A stretch of 64,000 nucleotides of DNA. Origin: Candidatus Bathyarchaeota archaeon. Lineage in GTDB: Archaea > Thermoproteota > Bathyarchaeia > Bathyarchaeales > Bathyarchaeaceae. A model generated the notes under the pieces. It was not told the DNA's origin. It did no database searches and saw nothing but the letters and a program-made list of their open reading frames with translations. The translations under genes and the position numbers were made by a program. Shown here in pieces: positions 50,821 to 64,000 of this stretch; position 1 is the first letter of the stretch; each line of letters opens with the position of its first letter. Location of the stretch: NCBI GenBank assembly GCA_963697165.1, contig CAVOMX010000012.1, positions 32,001 to 96,000 on the forward strand, given 5' to 3'.

Positions 50821-51607
50821 ATGGACAACTGGAGACTACTCAAACTCCAAACAGCAGACGCCTTCACAAACATGGCAGTCGACGAAGCAATAATGAAAGC
50901 AAGAATCGAAGACAGAGTACCCAACACCCTCAGACTCTACCAATGGAGGCCCTCAGCCGTTTCCATAGGACGCTTCCAAACCTTAGCAGACGAAATCCAC
51001 GTAGACAACTGCAAAAAACATGGCGTAGACATTGTAAGAAGAATCACAGGCGGCGGAGCCGTATACCACGACCAAAACGGAGAAATCACCTACAGCATAA
51101 TAGCCAAAACAAGTGACCTAGGACTGCAAAGACCTAGACATGCTCTCTGCATACCAGAAAATATGCAGCGGACTAAACGAAGCAGTCAAAATCCTCGGAA
51201 CCAAAGCCGAATATCGTCCACCAGACCCAAAACGGTGCCCAAACCTCACAATAAGCGGAAAAAAAATTTCCGGAAATGCCCAATCATCCAAAAAAGGCAT
51301 ACTGCTTCAGCATGGAACCTTTCTGTTAGACATAGACCACGAAAAAATGTTCACTTTCCTTAGGGTTCCTTGGGCAAAAACATTAGATGACGTGCTTGCA
51401 GTCTCAAAAAGAAAGTTGACCTCTGCAAGGCAAGAGCTTGATTCAAACTTTTCTAACCAAGAGGCCTACCGAGCATTAGTTAAAGGCTTTGAAAAAGCAC
51501 TAAATGTGCAGTTTGTGGAAGAAGAACTCACAGAATACGAACAAAAACTCGCCGAAAAATATAGAAAAGAAAGGTTTGTGACCGAGGAGTTGGACTTTCC
51601 TCGGTAA
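50821..51607 (+). CDS. Lipoate-protein ligase/octanoyltransferase catalytic domain (LplA-N/LipM type; frameshift near 51123)
   Basis: NMAVDEA, LRLYQW...VSIGRFQ, RRITGGGAVYHD, GKKISGNAQ, LLQHGT. Confidence 0.92.
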
Positions 51608-51629
51608 AGCATCAGTTTAGCTGCGTTTT

Positions 51630-53653
51630 CTACAGTAGCGCATATAAGACTATTGTTTCAGCAAACACTGAAGCTACCAGAGACATCACTGTTATCAACG
51701 TGTTCAGTGAAGGTCCTGCAGTGTCTTTGAATGGATCTCCAACAGTGTCACCTACAACAGCAGCTTTGTGAGTCTCTGAACCTTTACCACCAAAAGCTCC
51801 AGCTTCAACATACTTCTTAGCATTGTCCCATAATCCGCCTGCATTAGACATCAACAGAGCAAAGATAAGTCCCGAGAAGATGCTGCCTGCCAAATAGCCA
51901 CCAAGAGCCTGTATGCCGCCAATGAAACCTACCGCCAATGTAACAGTAATAGACATAACGCTTGGAAGGATCAACTCTTTTAGTGCACCTTTCGTGGCTA
52001 TGTCAATACAAGAGTTGTAATCTGGTTTCACGCCTTCTTTGCCTTCTTTCAGACCCGGAATATCTCTGAACTGTCTCCTGATTTCTTCAATCATCCTGAA
52101 CGCATTTTTGCCAACACTGAGCATAACCAAAGCTGAAAACACCGCAGGTATTGCAATACCAATGAGCGCACCAGTCAAAACTAAGGGATCCATCAGGTTG
52201 AAACTGATTACTTTTCCAGTTGCGTTTTGAACTATTTGTTGGAATGCTGCAAGCAACGCAATTACTGTTAATCCTGCTGCTCCAATCGCAAATCCTTTTG
52301 TTATAGCCTTGGAAGTGTTGCCCGCGGCGTCAAGCTTGGCAGTGACATCAAGAACTTCCTCTTCTAATCCTGCCTGCTCGGCAATTCCTCCTGCGTTGTC
52401 TGCGATAGGACCATAAGCGTCTCCAGCTACAATCATTCCAACAATAGATAACATTCCAACTGCTGCCATGCCAATTCCGTAAACACCTGAAACTCCATAT
52501 GCTTCTGCTACTGTATACGCTCCAAAAGACGCCAATGCAATTCCTAGAAGCGGCGGAAACATGCTTAGTAATCCGTAAGAAAAGCCTGTGATTATGTTAA
52601 CCGCAGCGCCAGTTTGTGACGCTTCGGCTGTTTTAAGTACTGGAGTTTTGTCTATTGAAGTGAAGTAGTCTGTTGTTATTCCAATAACAACTCCTGCACC
52701 CAATCCGATAACAGCTGCTGCCCAGATGCCGAAGTTAATGCCCATATACTGTGTCACACCAAATGTTATGGCACCGAACAAGATGCATGTCAAGTATGTT
52801 CCCCAATTGAGAGCTTTTCCAGGATTGCCTTTTTTACCCACACGAACCATGGCAACTCCCAAAATTGAAGCCACAATTCCTAATCCCGCAAATATCAGTG
52901 GAACATTGACCAACATGTTATCGAAGGAAGCTAATCCAGGGATAACACCCAATATCATTACAGCCACAATGCTTGCTACATAGGAGTCAAAAAGGTCCGC
53001 TCCCATTCCTGCAACGTCACCAACGTTGTCGCCAACATTGTCCGCTATTACTCCTGGGTTTCGGGGATCATCTTCTGGTATGTTCATTTCCACTTTGCCT
53101 ACAAGATCTGCTCCAACATCAGCAGTTTTTGTGTAGATTCCTCCACCCACCTTCGCAAATAATGCCATGGCACTTGCTCCAAAGCTGAAGCCCAGAACTA
53201 TTGTTGGGTCAGCAGTGAAGAAGTAAACAGCACTTAGACCAAGGAGGGCTAATCCAACTACCGCTAATCCCATAACTGCTCCTCCACGGAAAGCTATGGG
53301 AAATGCTTTGTTTAGTCCCTGTTTTGCTGCAAAGGCTGATTTGACGTTTGCTTTTAGTGCAACTGTCATTCCCAAGAATCCTGCCAATGCAGAACATATT
53401 GAACCAAAAACGTAAGCTACTGCCATAATTGGGTTTAGAAATATCGCCAAGACGTGGCTACTACTGCAACGAACACTGCAAGATACTTGAACTCCACTTT
53501 CAGGAATGCTTTGGCACCTTCTTGTATGGCGCCCGCAATTTCCTTCATTTTGTCGGTTCCGCTACTTTGTTTGTTTATGTAGAAATAGAGATAGATTGCA
53601 ACTAGTATCGATACTACTGCAGTAATCGGCGCAATTGTCCAATCAATCATCAT
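51630..53653 (-). CDS. hppA: Membrane-bound Na+/H+-translocating pyrophosphatase, K+-dependent type (frameshift near 53450)
   Basis: GGGIYTKTADVGADLVGKVE, EDDPRN, DNVGDNVGD, YGPIADNAGG, GDTVGDPFKD. GNTSKA has Ala at the K+-dependence position. Confidence 0.95.
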
Positions 53654-53902
53654 CGTAATTTACACATCCTCGTTTTAGAAGTATTACGATCTTAGCTTGT
53701 TTGTTTTAAGTTTTTCGTAGAAGTGTTCAACTGTATTGATTGATTCCTCCCTTTTTGCCATGTGTGCTCAAATTTTGAATCCACATTTCAGACTTTAGTA
53801 TGTTTGTTAGAAAATTTTTACATAAAATCTAAGAAACGCTTTTTAGTAGATTACTTCCACCTTAAACATCTAATCTTCAGCGTCAGTAAACAGGCGGTTG
53901 AA

Positions 53903-56651
53903 ATGAGCTCTGAATGGCATTCGTTAGAAAAAAAGCAACTTTTAGAATCCTTGAAAGCCACCGAAAAAGGATTAAGTACAGAAGAGGCTGAACGTCGACT
54001 CCAAGAGTTCGGACCCAACGAACTAGTTGAGAAAAAGCGTGTAACTCCCCTTCAGATATTCTTTGGTCAATTCAAGGACATCTTTGTAATCATGCTTCTA
54101 ATAGCTATGGCAATATCAATCAGTGATTGCAATCACCCGTGATGCGGGAGAATTCGTGGACGCCGCAACCATAGGCGCCATCATATTCCTCAACGCCATA
54201 GTCGGTTTTGTACAAGAGTATAGATCAGAAAAGGCAATGGAAGCCATGAAAAATCTCACGGCTCCCAAAGCCCGAGTCCTCAGAGACGGAACAGAACAGC
54301 TCATTCCATCAAGAGAGGTCGTGCCCGGAGACATCGTTCTTTTGGAAGCTGGAGATCGCATCCCTGCTGACGCTCGACTCCTCGAAGTTGTGGACCTGAA
54401 GACTGACGAAGCAATTTTGACTGGTGAATCCACAGCAGTCGACAAAAGGGACGATGTTCTTGACAAAAAAACGGCTGTAGCTGACAGAAAAAACTCGATT
54501 TTTATGGCAACTCACATAACTTACGGTAGAGGCAAAGCCGTAATCGCATCAACTGGAATGGAAACAGAATTCGGCAAAGTTGCCGAGATGGTTCAAGCCG
54601 TGGAGCAGACAGAAACTCCACTCAAGCAGAAACTAACAAAGTTTGCCAAAAAATTGGGAATAATAATTATTTTCGTGAGTGCCGCAATATTTCTACTTGA
54701 ACTTTATGAAATTTTTGTTATTGGCGGAGGCGGCAGTTTAGAACACATTATCGACCAGATAATCGGCGCCTTTGAAACTGCAGTCGCCCTTGCCGTCTCA
54801 GCAGTTCCAGAAGGTTTGCCTGCAGTTGTAACTGTGTCCCTTGCATTGGGCGCTAGAGAACTTGCAAAACGTAAAGCTCTAATCCGCAGGCTTTCATCTG
54901 CAGAAACTTTGGGAGCAACAGACATCATCTGCTCCGACAAAACCGGAACCCTGACAAAGGGCGAAATGACCGTGCGCAAAATCTACGTCAACAACAAAAT
55001 GATTGACGTAACAGGCGCCGGCTATGAGCCAACAGGAGATTTCCTCATAAACGGTGTTCCCATAGACCCAAAGGAAGATGCAGACCTTACTTTGTTGTTG
55101 AAAGCTGGCACCTTGTGCTCCAACGCCAGTTACGACGGAAAGAAAGTGATTGGAGACACAACAGAGGGAGCATTGATTGTGGCAGCCGCCAAAGCTGGAA
55201 TTGTAAAGGAAGATCTGGAGACCTGCCATTCCCGTCTGCATGAAGTTCCCTTTACCTCCGAGAGAAAGCGCATGACGACAGTTCACAAGTCACCTGAAGG
55301 AGGAGGGGGATTTGTATACGTTAAAGGAGCCGTCGAAATCCTCTTAGACCGTTCAGGTATACATCCTCAAGGGCAATAAAGCAGTTAAGTTAACCAAGAC
55401 CGATAAAGAACAGATCATAAAGACAAACGAGGAGATGGCAAATCAGGCTCTTCGTGTCCTCGCCATAGCTTACAAAGAGTTGCCAACCATTGGAACAAAG
55501 AAACACGATTCGGAAGAGTTGGAGAGCGACTTAGTTTTCATAGGCTTAACAGGAATGATTGACCCGCCCCGAGATGAAGCAAAAGGCGCCATTGAGCTGT
55601 GCCGAAAAGCAGGCATAAAGACTGTCATGATTACTGGAGACCACAAACTTACAGCAGTTGCCATAGCCAAAGAGTTAGGCATAATGGAAGGCGATTTGGC
55701 TCTAACAGGCGCTGAACTGGACAAAATGAGCGAAGAAGAATTCGATAAAGTAGTGGAGGACGTATCAGTTTACGCTCGGGTTTCTCCTGAACACAAGCTT
55801 CGGATAGTTAGAGCCCTGAAAAAGAAGGGACACATCGTCGCCATGACCGGAGACGGAGTCAACGACGCACCAGCCCTCAAACAGGCAGACATAGGAATAG
55901 CCATGGGCATCACAGGAACCGACGTGACCCGAGAAGCTGCAGACATGGTGCTTGCAGACGACAACTTCGCCACAATCGTCACAGCAGTTGAAGGCGGACG
56001 AGCAATATACGATAACATACGCAAATTCTCTTTCTTCCTGTTGCGTTCCAACTTTGACGAACTATTGGTCATAGGTGTCTTTGCGTTGATGGGACCATTC
56101 TTGGGCGGAGCAGACCTCATATTGCCTTTAACTCCTGCCATGATTTTGTGGATAAATCTGGTTACAGACGGAGGACCTGCATTAGCTTTGAGCATGGACC
56201 CACCACAGGAAGACTTGATGAGTCGACAACCGCGAAACCCTAACGAAGGCATACTACATGGAAGATTCGCTTCAATCTTAGCCAGTTTCGTGACCCAATT
56301 CCTAGGTACTGGTGTACTGTTCGCTATTGCTTACTTCGTATGGGGACGCTCCTTAGCTGAAGCACAAACCATGGCTTTTGTGCAAGCCACTATGCAGGAA
56401 CTGCTAATCGTGTGGAACTGCCGGTCAGAAACAAAGAGCGCATTCAGACTCAGCTTCACTTCAAACAAGTTCCTGCTCTTTGCAGTGGTTGCCTCAGCAA
56501 TACTAACTGTTATAGTGCCTTACACTGGTTTGCTAGGAACAGCACCACTAGACCTGATGGACTGGGCTACTCGTTCTACCCATCTCGTTCTCAGGATCTG
56601 CTGATATTGCCTGAGATCTTCTATGGACGAAAGATTTGGCGCTGGAGATAA
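53903..56651 (+). CDS. P-type (type II, Ca2+-like) cation-transporting ATPase (several frameshifts)
   Basis: TGES, AVPEGL, DKTGTLT, KGA.E, DPPR, MITGD, TGDGVNDAP, INLVTDG. Confidence 0.93.
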
Positions 56652-57143: not shown

Positions 57144-57818
57144 GTGAAACTCCAAAAAGTATGCATAATTGCTTTGTGTACACTACTTTTGACGTTAGCT
57201 TTTTCTGAGGTAGGCCACTCAGCCCCTGAAGAAGCACCGAGTGTATATTATCTAGAATATGGCGGTCTCAAAATAGACGTTAGAGCTCCTAGTCAATCAT
57301 ATCCAGGCGAGAACATAACAGTTACCGTGAAAGCAGAAGCGATAACCGAGATTTACGTCAAATACGTCCGCGTAACAATTTATGGTGCATTAAATGCTAC
57401 TGACAAGGTTACCTTACGGGATATCATTCACCTTGAAAATTATTCTTTCACTTCTTCCTCTGAAGTTCATGAAGTCCAGTACAACGTAACAATCCCCGAT
57501 AACATGTCTCCAGGATTAACCTATGGCGTAATAAGCAGTGAATGGGAACTCATGGGTTCGCCCCAAAAGATTCTCCCAGCAGGATTCGCTTTGACATACA
57601 TCAGAAACATGGACTTAGAACAGCTTCAAACAGAATATCAAGAACTAAACGCTACACACCAATCGTTGCTGCAAGAATACACAGAACTGAAATCAGGCAT
57701 AAACGAAGACTTGGATTCTACCCGAAACATGCTATACATCTTCGTTGCAACAACCGTTGTCGCCAGCATCACAGTTATTGTTCTGTTAATGAGAAAACCC
57801 AAAAAGATTTGGATTTAA
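57144..57818 (+). CDS. Secreted protein with a beta-rich domain, coiled coil and C-terminal TM anchor
   Basis: Signal peptide, a heptad-like LEQLQTEYQELNATHQSL segment, and a C-terminal TM followed by RKPKK. Confidence 0.75.
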   Translation: MKLQKVCIIALCTLLLTLAFSEVGHSAPEEAPSVYYLEYGGLKIDVRAPSQSYPGENITVTVKAEAITEIYVKYVRVTIYGALNATDKVTLRDIIHLENYSFTSSSEVHEVQYNVTIPDNMSPGLTYGVISSEWELMGSPQKILPAGFALTYIRNMDLEQLQTEYQELNATHQSLLQEYTELKSGINEDLDSTRNMLYIFVATTVVASITVIVLLMRKPKKIWI

Positions 57819-58816
57819 AATCCCAAAACTTTTTTTGCTTCTTCAATCTCTTCAGGTAGCAGTTGCCTTGGATAATTATAGAGCGGACCGCCCGGGCTCT
57901 CGTTATAGTATGGTCTGTTGCATCCTGGACATCCTGAAGTAAGAAACGGCTTGCCTGTGTCTATGTCTTCTAGTAGCATTTCTTTAGAGATTCCAAAGCT
58001 TGTAAGATTCCCGTTCTTATCAAATTCCATGTTTTCGAAGCGTGCTTTTCTGTGGGTTAAAATGTAATGGGCAACTTGTGATCTCCGATAACTGCTTATG
58101 GATGGAGGAGACCTGTTTTCAAGAGCGGTTCCTGGAATTGGCGTAAAGGCGAACAAGCCTGGGTAGACTCCTGAATCAACGCACCATTGAATCTTTTGAC
58201 AAAGCTCCTTTTCTGTTTCTCCCAGACCCACAATAAGATGTGTGCTCACGGAGCCTTCCCCGAAGACATGGACAGCTTCCTTTAACGCTTCATGTTGTTT
58301 CTCCCAGTGGTAAGGTCCGCCAATGTTTTGTCCCTTAACGTTCCCGAATATCTTCTCTGTAGCCGCATCCAAGGCGATGCTTACTCGGTTAACGCCAGCG
58401 TCTACCCATTTCTTCATTTTCTGATTGCTTAGTGGCTTGCACGAAACAGAAATAGGCGCCGCGACTCTGGAGCTGATTTCCTTAACAAGAAACAAAACGT
58501 CATCAAAAGCCTCTGGATAATTTAGTGATTGAATGCAAACCCGCTTTATCGTCCCCGCTTTTACGTTTCTTTCTATTGCATCAACTATTTTTTTTGTCGG
58601 GAATGCTGGCCAAGTGACTCTGGAGAGCCTGTCTGCTCTGCCTTTGCTGTTTCTGGCTTGAGGGCAGAAGCCGCAGTTGGCGGAGCACTTTTCGTTTCGA
58701 CACATGAGCAGATATGCGGTTGTTGGTTTGGCATCTAGCTTGCCTCGTAACAAGCCTAATACAATTGCTGAGCCTGTAGAAACACGGACTCTTTCAGGGA
58801 AGCATGTGTCACTCAT
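57815..58816 (-). CDS. lipS2: Radical SAM lipoyl synthase subunit LipS2
   Basis: CSANCGFC plus the C-terminal TSGCPGCNRP motif described for Thermococcus LipS2; gcvH and lpl nearby. Confidence 0.85.
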   Translation of the reverse strand: MSDTCFPERVRVSTGSAIVLGLLRGKLDAKPTTAYLLMCRNEKCSANCGFCPQARNSKGRADRLSRVTWPAFPTKKIVDAIERNVKAGTIKRVCIQSLNYPEAFDDVLFLVKEISSRVAAPISVSCKPLSNQKMKKWVDAGVNRVSIALDAATEKIFGNVKGQNIGGPYHWEKQHEALKEAVHVFGEGSVSTHLIVGLGETEKELCQKIQWCVDSGVYPGLFAFTPIPGTALENRSPPSISSYRRSQVAHYILTHRKARFENMEFDKNGNLTSFGISKEMLLEDIDTGKPFLTSGCPGCNRPYYNESPGGPLYNYPRQLLPEEIEEAKKVLGF

Positions 58817-58960
58817 TTGACAACACCGAACATTTTTGGATTCTATATTGTAAATATTTGGCGCCTATATTTATCTCTACCAAACCTAAATCTTGGAAAA
58901 CAGAAACTTCTTATGAGCTTTACCCTTCTCTCTATTCTGGTAGTTCTTGGGGAATTGAAA

Positions 58961-59296
58961 ATGGCGGATGGTCCTCGTATAATACGAGAGAAAAAAACTG
59001 TTTCCGCGATGATACACCTTTACTGCCGTAAACATCACGGAACTCATGGCGATGAACTTTGTCCAGAATGTAATGAACTGCATGAGTATGCAATGCTGCG
59101 GCTGTCAAAATGTCCTTTCCAAGAAAACAAGTCAACTTGTGGCAAATGTTTAGTTCATTGCTACAAACCAGACATGAAAACGAAAATAGCTAAGGTTATG
59201 CACTATTCTGGACCCCGAATGTTGTTTCATCATCCTATTCTTGCGTTGCATCATGTCCTTGATGGAAGAAAAAAGCCTAAGCCACTAAAGAAATAG
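58961..59296 (+). CDS. YgbA / nitrous-oxide-stimulated promoter family Cys-rich protein
   Basis: REKKTV..MI.LYC...H, C.EC..L..YA..RL..CP...K.TC..C..HCY, M.YSGPRML. Confidence 0.88.
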   Translation: MADGPRIIREKKTVSAMIHLYCRKHHGTHGDELCPECNELHEYAMLRLSKCPFQENKSTCGKCLVHCYKPDMKTKIAKVMHYSGPRMLFHHPILALHHVLDGRKKPKPLKK

Positions 59297-59352
59297 GTCT
59301 ATTTGATGTTGTATTCAAAAGGTTTTTAGAAACCCAAGATGATTAAGCGAGT

Positions 59353-60343
59353 ATGACGAGCCTAGACGCTGAAAGCATATGGCGGATGCCAAAAAAGGAG
59401 CTAGTTTCATTAATTGAGAGTGGGGCTATTCCAAACAGGACAGGGAAGATTCGGTTCTATGCTCCAAGTTTTGTCTACTACAAAAACAAATATTTTGGTT
59501 CATCTCACGATGCTTTCCCTTCCATCTCAATCACGGGCTCCTCCTGTGCACTGAAATGCAAACACTGCAACGGAAAAGTGTTAGACACGATGGTTCCATC
59601 CCTGACTCCAGAAGGTCTCTTTGAGCTCTGTGCAAAACTGAAAAAAGATGGAGCAGTTGGCTGCCTCATAAGCGGAGGATGCCTTCCAGATGGTTCTGTT
59701 CCCATTGACAAGTTCATAGATGTTATCGCCCAGATAAAGAAGGAGCTGGGTCTAACTGTTGTTGTTCACACAGGGGTAATTGACTTTTCAACTGCAAAAC
59801 GGTTGAAGGCTGCTGGAGTTGACGCTGCGTTAATCGACATAATTGGCTCCGACGAAACTATCCGTGAAGTCTATCGTCTCGATGTTAGCGTTGAAGATTA
59901 TGAACGGTCACTACAAGCTTTTCATGAATCTGGAATTCCCTTTGTTCCACATGTGCTTGTGGGGCTACATTACGGTGAACTGAAGGGCGAACTTGAGGCA
60001 CTGAAAATGATATCGAAATATTCGCCTTCTGCGGTCATAACAATAGCTTTTATGCCTATCCGTGGGACGCCCATGGAAAACGTGAGTCCGCCTGAACCAG
60101 AAGATATTGCAAAAATTACTTGCTTCTGCCAAACTATTGATGCCAGAAACTCCACTTGTTTTGGGGTGCATGAGACCAAAAGGTGAGCATAGAAAAAGAA
60201 CTGACATGCTTGCTGTTAGAGCTGGCGTAAACGCAGTAGCCTTTCCTGTCGAGGAGGCAATCCAGCTTGCAGAATCCCTGAAGCTAGAAATCTCTTTTTC
60301 GCCTCTCTGCTGTTCCCAAATTTTTGAAGACATCAAGCCTTGA
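59353..60343 (+). CDS. lipS1: Radical SAM lipoyl synthase subunit LipS1 (frameshift near 60118)
   Basis: SITG..CALKCKHC, LISGG, PHV.VGLH.G, then LGCMRP and CC, the motifs described for Thermococcus LipS1. Confidence 0.85.
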
Positions 60344-60398
60344 TTCATTCGAGGCAATCCGATACATTCTGGATTGTTTTAGCTAATGTACGATAACT

Positions 60399-60770
60399 TT
60401 AGGGGCGTACTTTTCTTTGTACAATCTTGTGTTTCTTAATTGCAAACTCTATTGCATGTGCCAAATCTTCTTTTGAAAGTGCCCCCACAATACCATTCAC
60501 GGGTCTTCCTCCACAAAAAAACAGGAATGTAGGCGTTCCCATCACACCATACTTGCCCGCAAGTTTCTCATTTTCGATGCTGTCTACAACATTAAGCTTA
60601 ATGAACTTCAGCTTATCTCCGTATTCTATGGCTAGTTCGTCGTAAACTGGTTTGATTGCCTGACAATGGGGACAAAATGGATGCCAGAACTGCACCACAA
60701 CCAACTGTTTTTCCTCTAAAATTCGTTCTTTCCAGTCTACCGCGTTTGCCTCTTCTATCTGCTCAAACAT
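60399..60770 (-). CDS. Thioredoxin
   Basis: FWHPFCPHC, KYGVMGTPT. Confidence 0.9.
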   Translation of the reverse strand: MFEQIEEANAVDWKERILEEKQLVVVQFWHPFCPHCQAIKPVYDELAIEYGDKLKFIKLNVVDSIENEKLAGKYGVMGTPTFLFFCGGRPVNGIVGALSKEDLAHAIEFAIKKHKIVQRKVRP

Positions 60771-60935
60771 GACCTGCCGCCTAAATTTCTGTATCCCTTA
60801 TGAGAATAAGTCATTTTTGCTCAAACATTGCTTCTCTTTCATGCTTTACTGTTATGGTTTTTTCCTTGATTCGAATCGTTATGTTTTTAAGATAAACAGT
60901 TATCACAATACGGTAACTGATAGAGGTGGAAAATA

Positions 60936-61358
60936 ATGGTCAAGGTAGAAGACTATGACGTGCCTGAAAATCTGTGTTACCACAAAGAATACCTCTGGGC
61001 TAAAGTAGAAGATGGAAAAGTGAAGATCGGAATGATCGATTTCGCTCAGAAACAACTCCATGACATTGTATATGTTGAACTCCCAAGCATCGGTGACACC
61101 ATAACCCAGAGTGAACCCTTCGGAACTCTAGAATCCGTGAAAGCCGTCTCAGATTTAGTTGCTCCTGTAAGCGGTACCGTTGAAGCTGTAAACGAAGAAC
61201 TAGAATCCAAACCTGAGTTACTCAACGAAGACCCATATGGCGAAGGATGGATACTGATCGTAGCCCCGTCAAATCTAGATGCAGACCTGAAAAAGATCCT
61301 GAACTTCGAATGCAGCTGTAGAATGGCACAAAGAACTCGTAAAAGAGGGTTAACTTAG
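60936..61358 (+). CDS. gcvH: Glycine cleavage H-type lipoyl carrier protein (3' end frameshifted)
   Basis: IG..DFAQ..L.DIVYVELP, ESVKAVSD (lipoyl Lys), N.DPYGEGW; GAGGTGG SD. Confidence 0.95.
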   Translation: MVKVEDYDVPENLCYHKEYLWAKVEDGKVKIGMIDFAQKQLHDIVYVELPSIGDTITQSEPFGTLESVKAVSDLVAPVSGTVEAVNEELESKPELLNEDPYGEGWILIVAPSNLDADLKKILNFECSCRMAQRTRKRGLT

Positions 61359-61448
61359 TTTATAGGTAAGCACCTTTTAGGTTTCACTAGAGAAACCGGT
61401 GAGGTCTTAGTAGGGGTTAATCCAAAACACTTTATTTTTTAATAAAAG

Positions 61449-61667
61449 GTGGGCATCGAAGGCGCAGTAGTAACTGGGATAAATTATGTTATTCTCATGA
61501 AAAGCCTCGGCATCAAAGTATTGGGAGTGATATTAAACAAGGTTCACACCAGTTATCTGACCGCTGAAATCAGACAGTATATCAAATCTGCTTTCAGCAA
61601 TCTTGGCGTCGAGTTGCTTGGCATATTGCCTCGTATCCAATTGGATGGGCGAGGAGCAATTCCTTAA
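61449..61667 (+). pseudogene. Fragment of a BioD/CobQ/CobB-like P-loop protein
   Basis: GVILNKV and VELLGILPR; the N-terminal part is absent. Confidence 0.5.
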
Positions 61668-61801
61668 ATCTTTAGTTGGCTGGTCATGTTTTCTTGATAA
61701 TGATATACAGTAATAAAATAAAATCACAGTAATTTTATTAGGAAGATTTTTTATCTGCGATGTAGACAATTAATGTGAATACAAATAGGCTGGAATCCAT
61801 A

Positions 61802-61995
61802 ATGGCCAAAATCCATAAACAAATAATTAAGTTACTACAAACCTCAGAAAAGCCATTAACCCTCGTTGAGCTTGCAGAACAACTCGAAACAACAGAAAAA
61901 AAGGTTTTCAATGCTTTAAAGAAACTCTTCTCGACGAAGAAATCAGTTGCGACGCCAAAACTCGTCAGTACTCTCTTGTAAAAAAGCAAAGCTAG
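61802..61995 (+). CDS. Small winged-helix protein (frameshift near 61933)
   Basis: IIKLL...KPLTLVELAEQL....KKVFNAL..L; continues after the shift as EEISCDAKTRQYSL. Confidence 0.65.
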
Positions 61996-62091
61996 ACCCT
62001 TTTTGTATCCATTTTTAATTTGAACTATCCGTTGAGAACAAGATTAATATGGAAACCAGTTCTTAGTTTGACAGCCAGAGTTGAGATTTAA

Positions 62092-63432
62092 ATGACCCGA
62101 AAAATCGTAATTATTGGAGCTCACGCTGCAGGTCTTGATGCGGCTTCTGCAGCCAGAAAAACTGATAGAACCGCTGAAATAACTCTTATAACAAAAGAGA
62201 ACAAAGCGGCATACTCCAGATGCGGTCTCCCCTTCGTTTTGGGTGGACACATAAAAACCTTTGATGACCTGGTGGTCTTTCCAGAAAGATTCTACAAAAT
62301 GATGAAACTAAACCTTCTAACAGAAACCACAGTAACAAACGTTGATGCAAAAGCAAAAACTGTCTCGATACAGGACAAAATCGGAAACAAGGACACTCTT
62401 TCATATGACAGTTTAGTGCTAGCCACCGGCGCTGACCCCTTCATGCCACCAATAAAGGGACGAGAAAAGAAGGGAATATTCGTAGTTCGAACAATAGAAG
62501 ACGGAGAAAAAATCAACAAAGCAATTGAAACAGCAAAATCAGCAGTCATTATAGGCGCAGGACTTATTGGTCTTGAAGTTGCCGTAGCATGCCTTGAACG
62601 AGGCCTAAAAACTACGGTTGTTGAATTTCTGCCATATGTTCTTCCAGTTTTGCTGGACAAAGCTATGGCTGATCACGTCCAGAAAGCGCTTGAAGAGAAA
62701 GGCATGAACATCATTGTCGGAAAAGGAGCAGAAGAATTCCTTGGAACCGACAAAGTTACCGGAGTTCTTGTTGCAGGAGAAACAATTCCAGCAGACGTGG
62801 TAGTTGTAGCCACTGGTGTAAGAGCCAACCTTGAATTGGCAAAAAATGCTGGAGTAGAACTTGGAAAACAGGGCATAAAAACCAACGTGAGAATGGAAAC
62901 CAACATCAAAGATGTTTACGCAGCTGGAGACTGCGCCGAGTCAATATACCTCGTCACTCGTAGACCTATGATGAGCCAGCTTGGAACCACTGCTGTGAGA
63001 CAAGCAAAAGTTGCAGGAATCAACGCTGCCGGAGGATACTCCACATTTACTGGAGCTTTAGGTTCGTGGATTACCCGATTATTTGACACTGAAATCGGTG
63101 GAACTGGACTTACAGAGTTCATGGCTGGACGATCCGGAATAGAAACGGTTTCGGCAACCATAGTTTCAAAAACAAGGGCTGACTACTTCCCCGGGGCATT
63201 ACCTGTCAAAGTCAAACTCGTTGCAGACAAGGAAACAGGTAAGCTAATTGGCGGTCAAATCATTGGAGGCGAAGAAGTAACCCAACGCATAAACGTCTTA
63301 TCCTTTGCTATACTAAACGAAATGACTATCCAAGAACTGGCGAAAGCTGAAACATGCTATGCACCTCCACTATCGGAAACTTGGGAGCCTATGATATTAG
63401 CTGCAGAAATGCTCTTGCGAAAACTCAAGTAA
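62092..63432 (+). CDS. FAD-dependent pyridine nucleotide-disulfide oxidoreductase (NADH oxidase/CoA-disulfide reductase family)
   Basis: IIGAHAAG, YSRCGLP (single redox Cys), GAGLIGLE..E (NADH-type), YAAGDC, YAPP. Confidence 0.92.
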   Translation: MTRKIVIIGAHAAGLDAASAARKTDRTAEITLITKENKAAYSRCGLPFVLGGHIKTFDDLVVFPERFYKMMKLNLLTETTVTNVDAKAKTVSIQDKIGNKDTLSYDSLVLATGADPFMPPIKGREKKGIFVVRTIEDGEKINKAIETAKSAVIIGAGLIGLEVAVACLERGLKTTVVEFLPYVLPVLLDKAMADHVQKALEEKGMNIIVGKGAEEFLGTDKVTGVLVAGETIPADVVVVATGVRANLELAKNAGVELGKQGIKTNVRMETNIKDVYAAGDCAESIYLVTRRPMMSQLGTTAVRQAKVAGINAAGGYSTFTGALGSWITRLFDTEIGGTGLTEFMAGRSGIETVSATIVSKTRADYFPGALPVKVKLVADKETGKLIGGQIIGGEEVTQRINVLSFAILNEMTIQELAKAETCYAPPLSETWEPMILAAEMLLRKLK

Positions 63433-63592
63433 CATCTCTGTGTGAGACGTTCTAAAACTGTAAGCCTAGCCTTTTAATTGACTAGGCACACCATCATCTC
63501 TTCTTTGATAAAACTTCAAATTTTTTGGCTGAAAAGAAAAGCTTTATTTGTCCGCTATACTTTAATCGAGTTTCTTGTAAACGGTGGTTCCT

Positions 63593-64000
63593 ATGGGAAA
63601 GGAAAAACTAAAGATCGCTTTTTATTGGGCGGCTAGTTGTGGAGGCTGCGAAGTAGCTGTTCTTGACGTCAACGAAAAAATCTTAGACGTCGTTGCAGCT
63701 GCTGACATTGTATTCTGGCCTGTAGCGATTGACATCAAATACAAAGATGTCGAAGCTATGCCAGACAAAAGCATAGACGCATGCTTCTTTAACGGCGCAA
63801 TAAGAACCGAAGAAAATGAAAAGATGGCGAAACTCCTAAGACAGAAATCAAAGATTCTTGTGGCCTTCGGCTCATGCGCCAACGATGGATGCGTAAAAGG
63901 TCTCGCGAATCTTTGGACCAAAGATGATGTCTTTGAGCGAGCATATCTTGAAACTCAATCAACTGTGAACCCTGAATCTGTTTTGCCTAAAACACGTGTC
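63593..64000 (+). CDS. mvhG: Group 3 [NiFe]-hydrogenase small subunit, MvhG-like (partial, runs off the window end)
   Basis: My translation: MGKEKLKIAFYWAASCGGCEVAVLD...FFNGAIR.EEN...LR.KSKILVAFGSCA..GC..GLANL. Confidence 0.88.
   Translation, partial: MGKEKLKIAFYWAASCGGCEVAVLDVNEKILDVVAAADIVFWPVAIDIKYKDVEAMPDKSIDACFFNGAIRTEENEKMAKLLRQKSKILVAFGSCANDGCVKGLANLWTKDDVFERAYLETQSTVNPESVLPKTRV

Follow-up and report, generated by a model that had tools for sequence, protein, structure and literature searches.

A GcvH-type lipoyl carrier with no known client, coupled to a single-cysteine flavoprotein beside mvh-hdr genes in Bathyarchaeia: a possible link between NAD(H) and HdrB

What does a lipoylated H protein do in an archaeon in which no glycine cleavage system can be found? 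The question is raised by a stretch of 64,000 nucleotides from a Candidatus Bathyarchaeota archaeon (genome G000 of our set; contig CAVOMX010000012.1, positions 32,001 to 96,000; hereafter, the window), in which the gene for a GcvH-type lipoyl carrier (60936..61353, + strand; the listed open reading frame, or ORF, ends at 61358) is followed on the same strand by a gene for a 446-aa single-cysteine FAD/NADH disulfide reductase of the CoADR/Nox/Npsr family (62092..63432; hereafter, the flavoprotein) and by mvhG (63584..64000, running past the window), the first gene of an mvhG-mvhA-hdrA/mvhD-hdrC-hdrB cluster. The initial annotation of the window suggested that the lipoylated H protein may be an electron carrier for an Mvh/Hdr-type complex. 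The reading that we tentatively prefer, and to which we give slightly less than an even chance as a whole, is that a non-canonical dihydrolipoamide dehydrogenase (Lpd) and lipoyl-GcvH together link NAD(H) to HdrB of Mvh-Hdr. Judging from sequence and gene order, the flavoprotein probably acts on lipoyl-GcvH and, should it do so, HdrB is a reasonably likely other partner. Gene identity, conservation, gene order and the missing partners are established here, and from these we infer every catalytic step.

The carrier is recognized by the GcvH model TIGR00527 (130.8 bits, cut-off 115.85) and holds Lys69 in an ESVK motif, this lysine being invariant in 25/25 aligned sequences. GcvP, GcvT, E1 and E2 were not found in the genome of the window, which is 81% complete. 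Among 24 relatives of the same genus, two of them single-contig genomes, neither GcvP (0/24) nor GcvT (0/24) was found above cut-off, E2 was found in none of the 20 that encode a lysine-bearing GcvH, and no further lipoyl domain was detected in any of the five genomes searched for one. The GcvH model matched 21/24 relatives, one of them solely through a lysine-less paralogue; the four genomes outside the 20 with a lysine-bearing GcvH are 58–86% complete. LipS1, a subunit of the archaeal lipoyl synthase, is present in 20/20. Because the genus keeps GcvH and LipS1 but shows no GcvP, GcvT or E2, no client of the carrier is known there, in agreement with the earlier view that it may not serve glycine cleavage. 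A complete gcvPT-lpd set elsewhere in the genome, combined with a lack of conserved linkage of gcvH and lipS to mvh or hdr, which that annotation had named as the outcome that would speak against it, was not what we found.

The pattern extends beyond the genus, with the qualification that the compared genomes are kin and not independent samples. In an even draw of the class, GcvP was missing in 17/29 genomes of the same order, and a member of the flavoprotein clade was present in 28/29. The 15 GcvP-less genomes outside the genus encode LipS1 in 15/15 cases, HdrB in 14/15 and E2 in 5/15. That GcvH might hand lipoyl groups on to E2 subunits was considered and rejected for the genus, given the E2 count of 0/20; it is possible in those 5/15 genomes. 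In a tree, the GcvH linked to the flavoprotein falls in a clade (support 98/96) separate from the gcvT-linked copy, and no cysteine is conserved among the invariant or near-invariant columns of this main GcvH clade.

Linkage was analyzed in 21 loci of the genus (that of the window and those of 20 relatives). The flavoprotein gene lies within 5 kb after gcvH in 18/21, mvhG within 200 bp after the flavoprotein gene in 17/21, and both lipS genes within the fetched stretch in 18/21. The arrangement thus recurs across the genus and is not due to chance. In the same order outside the genus, the gcvH-flavoprotein pair was found in 25/30 fetched genomes: 22 with the two genes no more than 40 bp apart on one strand, 1 convergent, and 2 in a cassette described below. 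Among named database records, the two genes are adjacent in 20/25 Bathyarchaeia loci vs 1/53 loci of other named taxa, plus 2 loci without a clear taxon; these records may repeat some of the fetched genomes, and the two sets were not summed. The best-conserved link is therefore that between gcvH and the flavoprotein, not that between gcvH and the hydrogenase, so that only part of the expected synteny held: the former pair is tight across the order, and linkage of gcvH to Mvh/Hdr appeared in 0/23 loci of the order once the genus and the cassette are set aside. On these counts, the oldest unit would be gcvH-flavoprotein, often followed by gapA-pgk. The mvh-hdr genes, and a small winged-helix (wHTH) gene between gcvH and the flavoprotein gene that was seen in this genus only, look like insertions of this genus.

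Physical fusion of the proposed partners was also sought. No GcvH-HdrB fusion was present among the 120 matches listed in a search of longer proteins, and none of 8 long flavoprotein homologues scanned contained a lipoyl domain. A singleton in which GcvH runs on into the flavoprotein stops after the first 233 positions of the latter; it was discarded as a frameshift artefact, because it resembles many singleton joins of GcvH to GcvP or GcvT.

The flavoprotein itself is best matched by the CoA-disulfide reductase model TIGR03385, at 368 bits under a cut-off of 578.8, and the nearest solved structures are 6PFZ (Archaeoglobus fulgidus Npsr), 6RUZ (Thermus thermophilus CoADR) and 3CGB. It carries a single redox cysteine, Cys44, and no CxxxxC motif, and reaches 136 bits with the Lpd model TIGR01350 (cut-off 408.8). 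Cys44, Tyr365, Tyr423 and Glu178 are invariant; the first three align with the three structures, and Glu178 occupies the position to which A. fulgidus Npsr owes its NADH preference. No rhodanese domain was found in a domain scan. Conservation extends to Arg22/Lys23 and Lys72. Asp/Glu stands at position 16 in 32/44 clade members and Ala/Gly at position 40 in 37/44, where other relatives have mostly Ser/Thr/Lys and Ser, respectively; both positions are presumed CoA contacts. With respect to CoA binding, the residue pattern is mixed. The flavoprotein forms its own Bathyarchaeia clade, and its nearest named records (50–83% identity) are from Bathyarchaeia as well. An AlphaFold model (pLDDT 77, low at 296–324) confirmed the family and nothing more.

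Genomes that do encode GcvP bear on the same assignment. Searches of 14 such genomes (first draw) with the Lpd model yielded matches solely at the level of the flavoprotein in 7, none at E 1e-25 in 4, one true Lpd, and sub-threshold CxxxxC-type proteins in the other 2. This pattern fits a role of the flavoprotein as the L protein of glycine cleavage and is no proof of it.

Past the end of the window, mvhG, mvhA, hdrA fused to mvhD, hdrC, hdrB, gapA and pgk follow on the same strand (G000:C12:95584-104256; orthologues annotated), so that the genes anticipated downstream are in place. The MvhG fragment within the window matches NF045875 at 88 bits and HdrB scores 343 bits; all six Mvh-Hdr subunits and both nickel-binding motifs of MvhA are present, and the cluster cysteines of HdrB are invariant in 21/21. 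HdrB was found in 23/24 genus relatives. The disulfide substrate of Hdr in Bathyarchaeia has been stated to be unclear (PMC7886697). ComD was above cut-off in 0/5 genus genomes (Mcr and CoB synthesis were not searched for), and so the disulfide is probably not CoM-S-S-CoB; DsrC was likewise above cut-off in 0/5. The genus also has a second HdrBC, clustered with a polyferredoxin-MvhD fusion and NfnAB (L193-L195, L200). Prediction of an HdrB-GcvH complex, run twice with the G017 orthologues and alignments, gave a score of 0.00 and counts neither way.

Other associations with Hdr were found away from the genus. In four genomes of two families, f1 and f6 (G013, G018, G096, G129), the resident gcvH is separated from mvhG or gapA by a cassette that holds flx-like genes, several copies of hdrA, frhB, a divergent flavoprotein, a divergent GcvH, hdrB and hdrC (L042/L043, L048/L049, L153/L154, L171/L172, L145); its parts fall on two contigs in G013 and G018. 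The flavoproteins of the cassette make up one clade (support 100) whose branches are short across both families, which suggests, on phylogenetic grounds, that the cassette moved between families as a unit. Its GcvHs group apart from the main GcvH clade, in a rough bootstrap with long branches present. In G056 and the named record L085, the pair stands beside hdr or mvh-hdr clusters in other arrangements. In G025, which is 99% complete, the sole GcvH has a different lipoyl loop and lies among hdrBC, hdrA, glcD, lipS1, lipS2 and a ligase gene (L056, G025:C3:22000-41900).

Further relatives of the carrier occur in other settings. At G000:C6:11559-16216 (L002; L203-L211), a gene for a GcvH-fold protein that lacks the lipoyl lysine and has a longer insert with cysteine in place of the hairpin stands at the head of a set of nuoE, nuoF, Cys-rich and HoxU-like genes and is divergent from a gene for an AbrB-PhoU-type regulator. 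The arrangement recurs in G002, G004, G009, G015, G017, G021 and G028, partly in G027, and as a variant in G037; Atlas matches of the protein are generic GcvH clusters. Other GcvH paralogues, in L055 (G024) and L063 (G029), are surrounded by genes for arsenite methyltransferase, arsenate reductase and transporters.

How might the pair and the Mvh-Hdr complex work together? A lipoate-protein ligase (LplA) and LipS2/LipS1 would, by family membership, lipoylate Lys69 of GcvH, a reaction demonstrated for the Thermococcus enzymes. The flavoprotein, given its gene coupling, could then exchange electrons between NAD(H) and the lipoyl dithiol/disulfide as a non-canonical Lpd. Where the P and T proteins exist, the pair can act as H and L of glycine cleavage; in the genus, which lacks P, T and E1/E2, it may form the two-electron, high-potential arm of the adjacent MvhGA-HdrA(D)CB, with lipoyl-GcvH presumably replacing CoM-S-S-CoB. 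At the H2 pressures of sediments the likelier direction would be confurcating, electrons from NADH passing through the flavoprotein and dihydrolipoyl-GcvH to HdrB/C/A and, together with those of reduced ferredoxin, through MvhD/G/A to 2 H2. The net reaction, NADH and reduced ferredoxin to H2, would be that of a HydABC-type hydrogenase. As plausible chemistry, the dihydrolipoyl arm could attack the oxidized Cys44 center (present as a mixed disulfide, whether or not CoA is bound) and then close its own ring.

The potentials for H2, NAD and ferredoxin used in the energetics are textbook values. With these, equilibrium of a lipoyl-coupled Mvh-Hdr is calculated to lie at ~0.03–0.2 bar H2, with confurcation favorable below, and that of a CoM-S-S-CoB-coupled one at 1e-4 to 7e-4 bar. 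At an E0' of -0.29 V, lipoamide can exchange electrons with NAD directly (PMC6067878). NADH might be either supplied or consumed through the adjacent gapA; the gapA/pgk pathway of related Bathyarchaeia has been read as gluconeogenic (PMC7886697). A broader and more doubtful proposal, which we consider somewhat unlikely as a whole, is that a lipoyl-protein hub operates across Bathyarchaeia. The dedicated GcvH and single-cysteine Lpd would provide a common disulfide for Mvh-, Flx/FrhB- and Nfn-linked HdrBC, Mvh-Hdr would confurcate without CoM/CoB, and in genomes with complete glycine cleavage the same flavoprotein would fill the place of the missing L protein.

Several observations weigh against coupling of the pair to Hdr. 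Within the genus, hdr adjoins mvhA in only 12/21 loci, mvhA leading straight to gapA in 6 and to a contig edge in 2; the G006 locus has no mvh, and in G003 the flavoprotein-mvh-hdr group lies 44 kb from gcvH. None of the 23 non-cassette loci from the same order outside the genus contains mvh, hdr or flx genes, in stretches of up to 20 kb, some of them cut by contig ends. No HdrB was found in G026 and G028, and G107 has an orphan pair without HdrB. The genus includes at least one member with a HoxEFUYH-type set and NfnAB as well, so the proposed lipoyl route need not be essential. Outside the order, gcvH is adjacent in only 4/18 flavoprotein-bearing genomes; flavoprotein homologues stand beside gapA/pgk without gcvH in records of Hadarchaeia and Hodarchaeales, and without gcvH in methanogen records.

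The proposed activity of the flavoprotein meets objections of its own. Classical Lpd carries a C-terminal His-x4-Glu pair; the His is absent here, with Ala424 in 42/44 and Glu429 in 39/44 clade members. G025 and G026 have GcvP and GcvT and match neither Lpd nor the flavoprotein clade; as the GcvH of G025 lies inside an hdr cluster, Hdr might reoxidize the H protein there. The closest characterized relative, A. fulgidus Npsr, is reported not to have reduced the disulfides tested (PMC7969121). A class-I reductase with CxxxxC and HPALSE motifs, which could recycle lipoamide, occurs in 22/24 genus relatives and, frameshifted, in the genome of the window (G000:C11:22702-24142); the claim that no CxxxxC enzyme is present is thus true of the window and fails for the genome. 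This reductase scores under the Lpd cut-off (~315–345 vs 408.8 bits) and stands beside a radical-SAM gene (L213, L214, L217); no lipoate genes adjoin it in the 3 loci inspected, and several GcvP-positive genomes lack it. Two genus members also carry a gene above the Lpd cut-off.

The alternative that survives best, which we regard as unlikely but serious, accepts the NAD(H)-lipoyl redox pair and places its acceptor outside Hdr, in peroxide defense, protein thiol repair or persulfide/polysulfide reduction, mvh-hdr having ended up between the flavoprotein gene and gapA in this genus by nothing more than clustering of redox genes. It would account for the ten GcvP-less genomes outside the genus (G034, G040, G057, G070, G080, G085, G099, G102, G112, G120) in which the fetched stretch holds the pair without mvh or hdr. 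The family of the flavoprotein includes Nox, Npx and persulfide reductases, and a GcvH-L lipoyl carrier of Staphylococcus aureus has been reported to act in oxidative-stress defense (PMC12440151). However, a second pair travels within the Hdr cassette across families, no peroxiredoxin, AhpD or rhodanese gene was recognized as a recurring neighbor of the pair, and the flavoprotein lacks a rhodanese domain.

A second, improbable alternative dispenses with the lipoyl pair altogether. The flavoprotein would be an ordinary CoA-disulfide/persulfide reductase, or an NADH oxidase balancing NAD for glyceraldehyde-3-phosphate dehydrogenase (GAPDH); Hdr would act on a CoA-containing or other small disulfide, and any cycling of lipoyl-GcvH would fall to the unlinked CxxxxC enzyme. 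The top model match, conservation of Cys44, Tyr365, Tyr423, Arg22/Lys23 and Lys72, and the presence of the CxxxxC/HPALSE reductase in most genus relatives all accord with it, as do L094, L096 and L121 (Hodarchaeales, Hadarchaeia and an unassigned archaeon), where a flavoprotein homologue directly follows gapA/pgk or pgk and there is no gcvH. This explanation leaves unaccounted for the coupling to gcvH at 40 bp or less in 22 genomes and the second, independent pair. Moreover, positions 16 and 40, presumed to contact CoA, differ from those of other relatives, and the CxxxxC gene is handicapped as an Lpd by its score, its lack of linkage to lipoate genes and its patchy occurrence, as given above.

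Least probable is a reduced glycine cleavage system, with H and L joined by unrecognized replacements of P and T or with the lipoylated H protein working alone: this protein does score as a GcvH equivalog, and is the sole GcvH alongside GcvP in G032, G039 and G093, and lipoylated H protein has been reported to be active alone in vitro (10.1101/2021.03.28.437365), but P and T were found in 0/24 genus relatives and P is missing from 17/29 same-order genomes, and a separate H gene persists in genomes such as G026, G033 and G115, in the first and last of these next to gcvT.

Returning to the NAD(H)-lipoyl-HdrB reading, the remaining genes of the locus supply its lipoylation enzymes and several passengers. 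Family scans placed all eight genes of the initial annotation where it had them (LipS2, YgbA, LipS1, thioredoxin, GcvH, wHTH, flavoprotein, MvhG); its inventory was incomplete, having overlooked a lipoate ligase and a gene fragment. The ligase gene, for an LplA-type catalytic subunit (50821..51607, +), sits 6 kb upstream of the lipS/gcvH cluster and is split over two frames (NF053750, 112 + 70 bits, cut-off 480; PF21948 in both pieces); in relatives, the protein is ~265 aa, unbroken, and encoded at the same position. We infer that it puts octanoate or lipoate on GcvH. The radical SAM subunit LipS2 (57815..58816, -) matches NF053743 at 361.4 bits (cut-off 270). LipS1 (59353..60343, +) is read in two frames (NF053742, 193.5 + 50.4 bits, cut-off 230), with a one-base frameshift near 60110–60130, and is intact and above cut-off in 39/44 relatives.

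Between and beside these lie a YgbA-like Cys-rich small protein (58961..59296, +; PF11756, 148 bits), an optional passenger found in 11/21 genus loci, and an optional thioredoxin with a CPHC motif (60399..60770, -; PF00085, 84 bits), convergent with lipS1. Both were rejected as core parts on account of their patchy presence. Thioredoxin, which had been given a place in recycling the carrier, occurs in 8/21 genus loci and always abuts lipS1, and the TrxR-like gene is separate from this locus; that role was dropped. A ygbA-like gene also follows directly after an hdrCB-mvhGA cluster in L197 (G070:C30), not beside lipS. The wHTH protein (61775..61995, +), a putative regulator, gives weak HTH matches and has a frameshift near 61930. 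Isolated between gcvH and the wHTH gene is the overlooked fragment of 72 aa (61449..61667, +), similar to the C-terminal stretch of cobyrinic acid a,c-diamide synthase (35 bits with NF004921, over model positions 364–429 of 482); it clusters with no ORF of related loci and is strain-specific and outside the module.

The strands are mixed, lipS2 and the thioredoxin gene being opposite to the remaining genes. One RNA run yielded short contigs, mostly <95% alike, over several genes, which show neither transcription nor a single transcript, and a scan for promoters and terminators with bacterial consensus sequences found fewer sites than in shuffles. One-base frameshifts affect lplA, lipS1, the ends of gcvH and the wHTH gene, mvhA and hdrA, all of them intact in most relatives, and also the genes for an H+-pyrophosphatase and a P-type ATPase. 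Such frameshifts are frequent at 50821-56604 of the window and at G000:C12:96534-100805, and point to indel errors of the assembly. The last residues of GcvH are put out of frame by an extra base at ~61309, which is absent from contigs of two other runs.

How much of this has been described? The initial annotation put the module forward as a candidate for an undescribed one, which does not stand, given that Kohtz et al. 2022 proposed the GcvH lipoyl disulfide as the substrate of HdrB in Culexarchaeia (PMC9723716). There, as here, gcvH lies beside genes for a [NiFe] hydrogenase and HdrB (the Ehe/HdrBC cluster) in archaea without CoM/CoB synthesis, and the role is a proposal (PMC9723716). The Culexarchaeia hydrogenase is a membrane-bound group 4 enzyme, and the passages on it name no recycling enzyme, whereas the present locus combines a soluble MvhGA-HdrA(D)CB with LipS1/LipS2, a ligase and the flavoprotein. 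That the lipoate-binding protein LbpA functions with sHdr in sulfur oxidizers is established (Cao et al. 2018, PMC6067878). That system likewise joins protein-bound lipoate to an Hdr-like complex, with reoxidation by NAD+ through Lpd as a proposal; LbpA has two conserved cysteines near its termini (PMC6067878), whereas the carrier here lacks them and keeps the GcvH-type ESVK loop. In addition, HdrB here resembles that of methanogens (E 8e-84), and the partner is a hydrogenase instead of sulfur oxidation.

The chemistry of LipS1/LipS2 is known (PMC13692748, PMC10332631). Thermococcus kodakarensis shares the LipS1/LipS2 radical-SAM synthases, the ligase and the H protein, and its L protein is described as not clearly identified (PMC13692748, PMC11032457); it has P and T and a genetically supported glycine cleavage, whereas the genus here has neither protein. 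The Mvh-Hdr cluster shares with methanogen MvhADG-HdrABC (PDB 5ODC and relatives) MvhG, MvhA with both nickel motifs, HdrA, MvhD, HdrC and the cluster cysteines of HdrB, and differs in that MvhD and HdrA are fused, the disulfide is unlikely to be CoM-S-S-CoB, and H2 production may be the direction. With CoADR, Npsr and Nox (6PFZ, 6RUZ), the flavoprotein has in common the fold, the single redox cysteine, the two active-site tyrosines and the acidic residue for NADH preference; its limited identity (~34–38%), sub-threshold family score, lack of rhodanese, separate Bathyarchaeia clade and coupling to gcvH set it apart. The main text of the description of a cultivated, named relative contains none of the terms Hdr, Mvh, lipo and glycine (PMC10477458; term search), and no account of this locus or of a GcvH-CoADR-type pairing was found in the literature searched, which consisted mostly of open-access main texts, so that supplementary annotation tables may list the genes. 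The lipoyl-Hdr idea is thus already in print, as a proposal; added here are the genus-wide orphan lipoylation and the order-wide coupling of GcvH to the flavoprotein.

Bathyarchaeia are among the most abundant archaea of sediments and have HdrABC without the coenzymes of methanogens. The locus supplies a candidate disulfide carrier, the lipoylation enzymes and a candidate recycling enzyme, and the small, soluble proteins make the question testable. Should the flavoprotein indeed turn over lipoyl-GcvH, it would represent a dihydrolipoamide dehydrogenase of a new class, and archaeal glycine cleavage systems that have no recognizable L protein could be explained by it.

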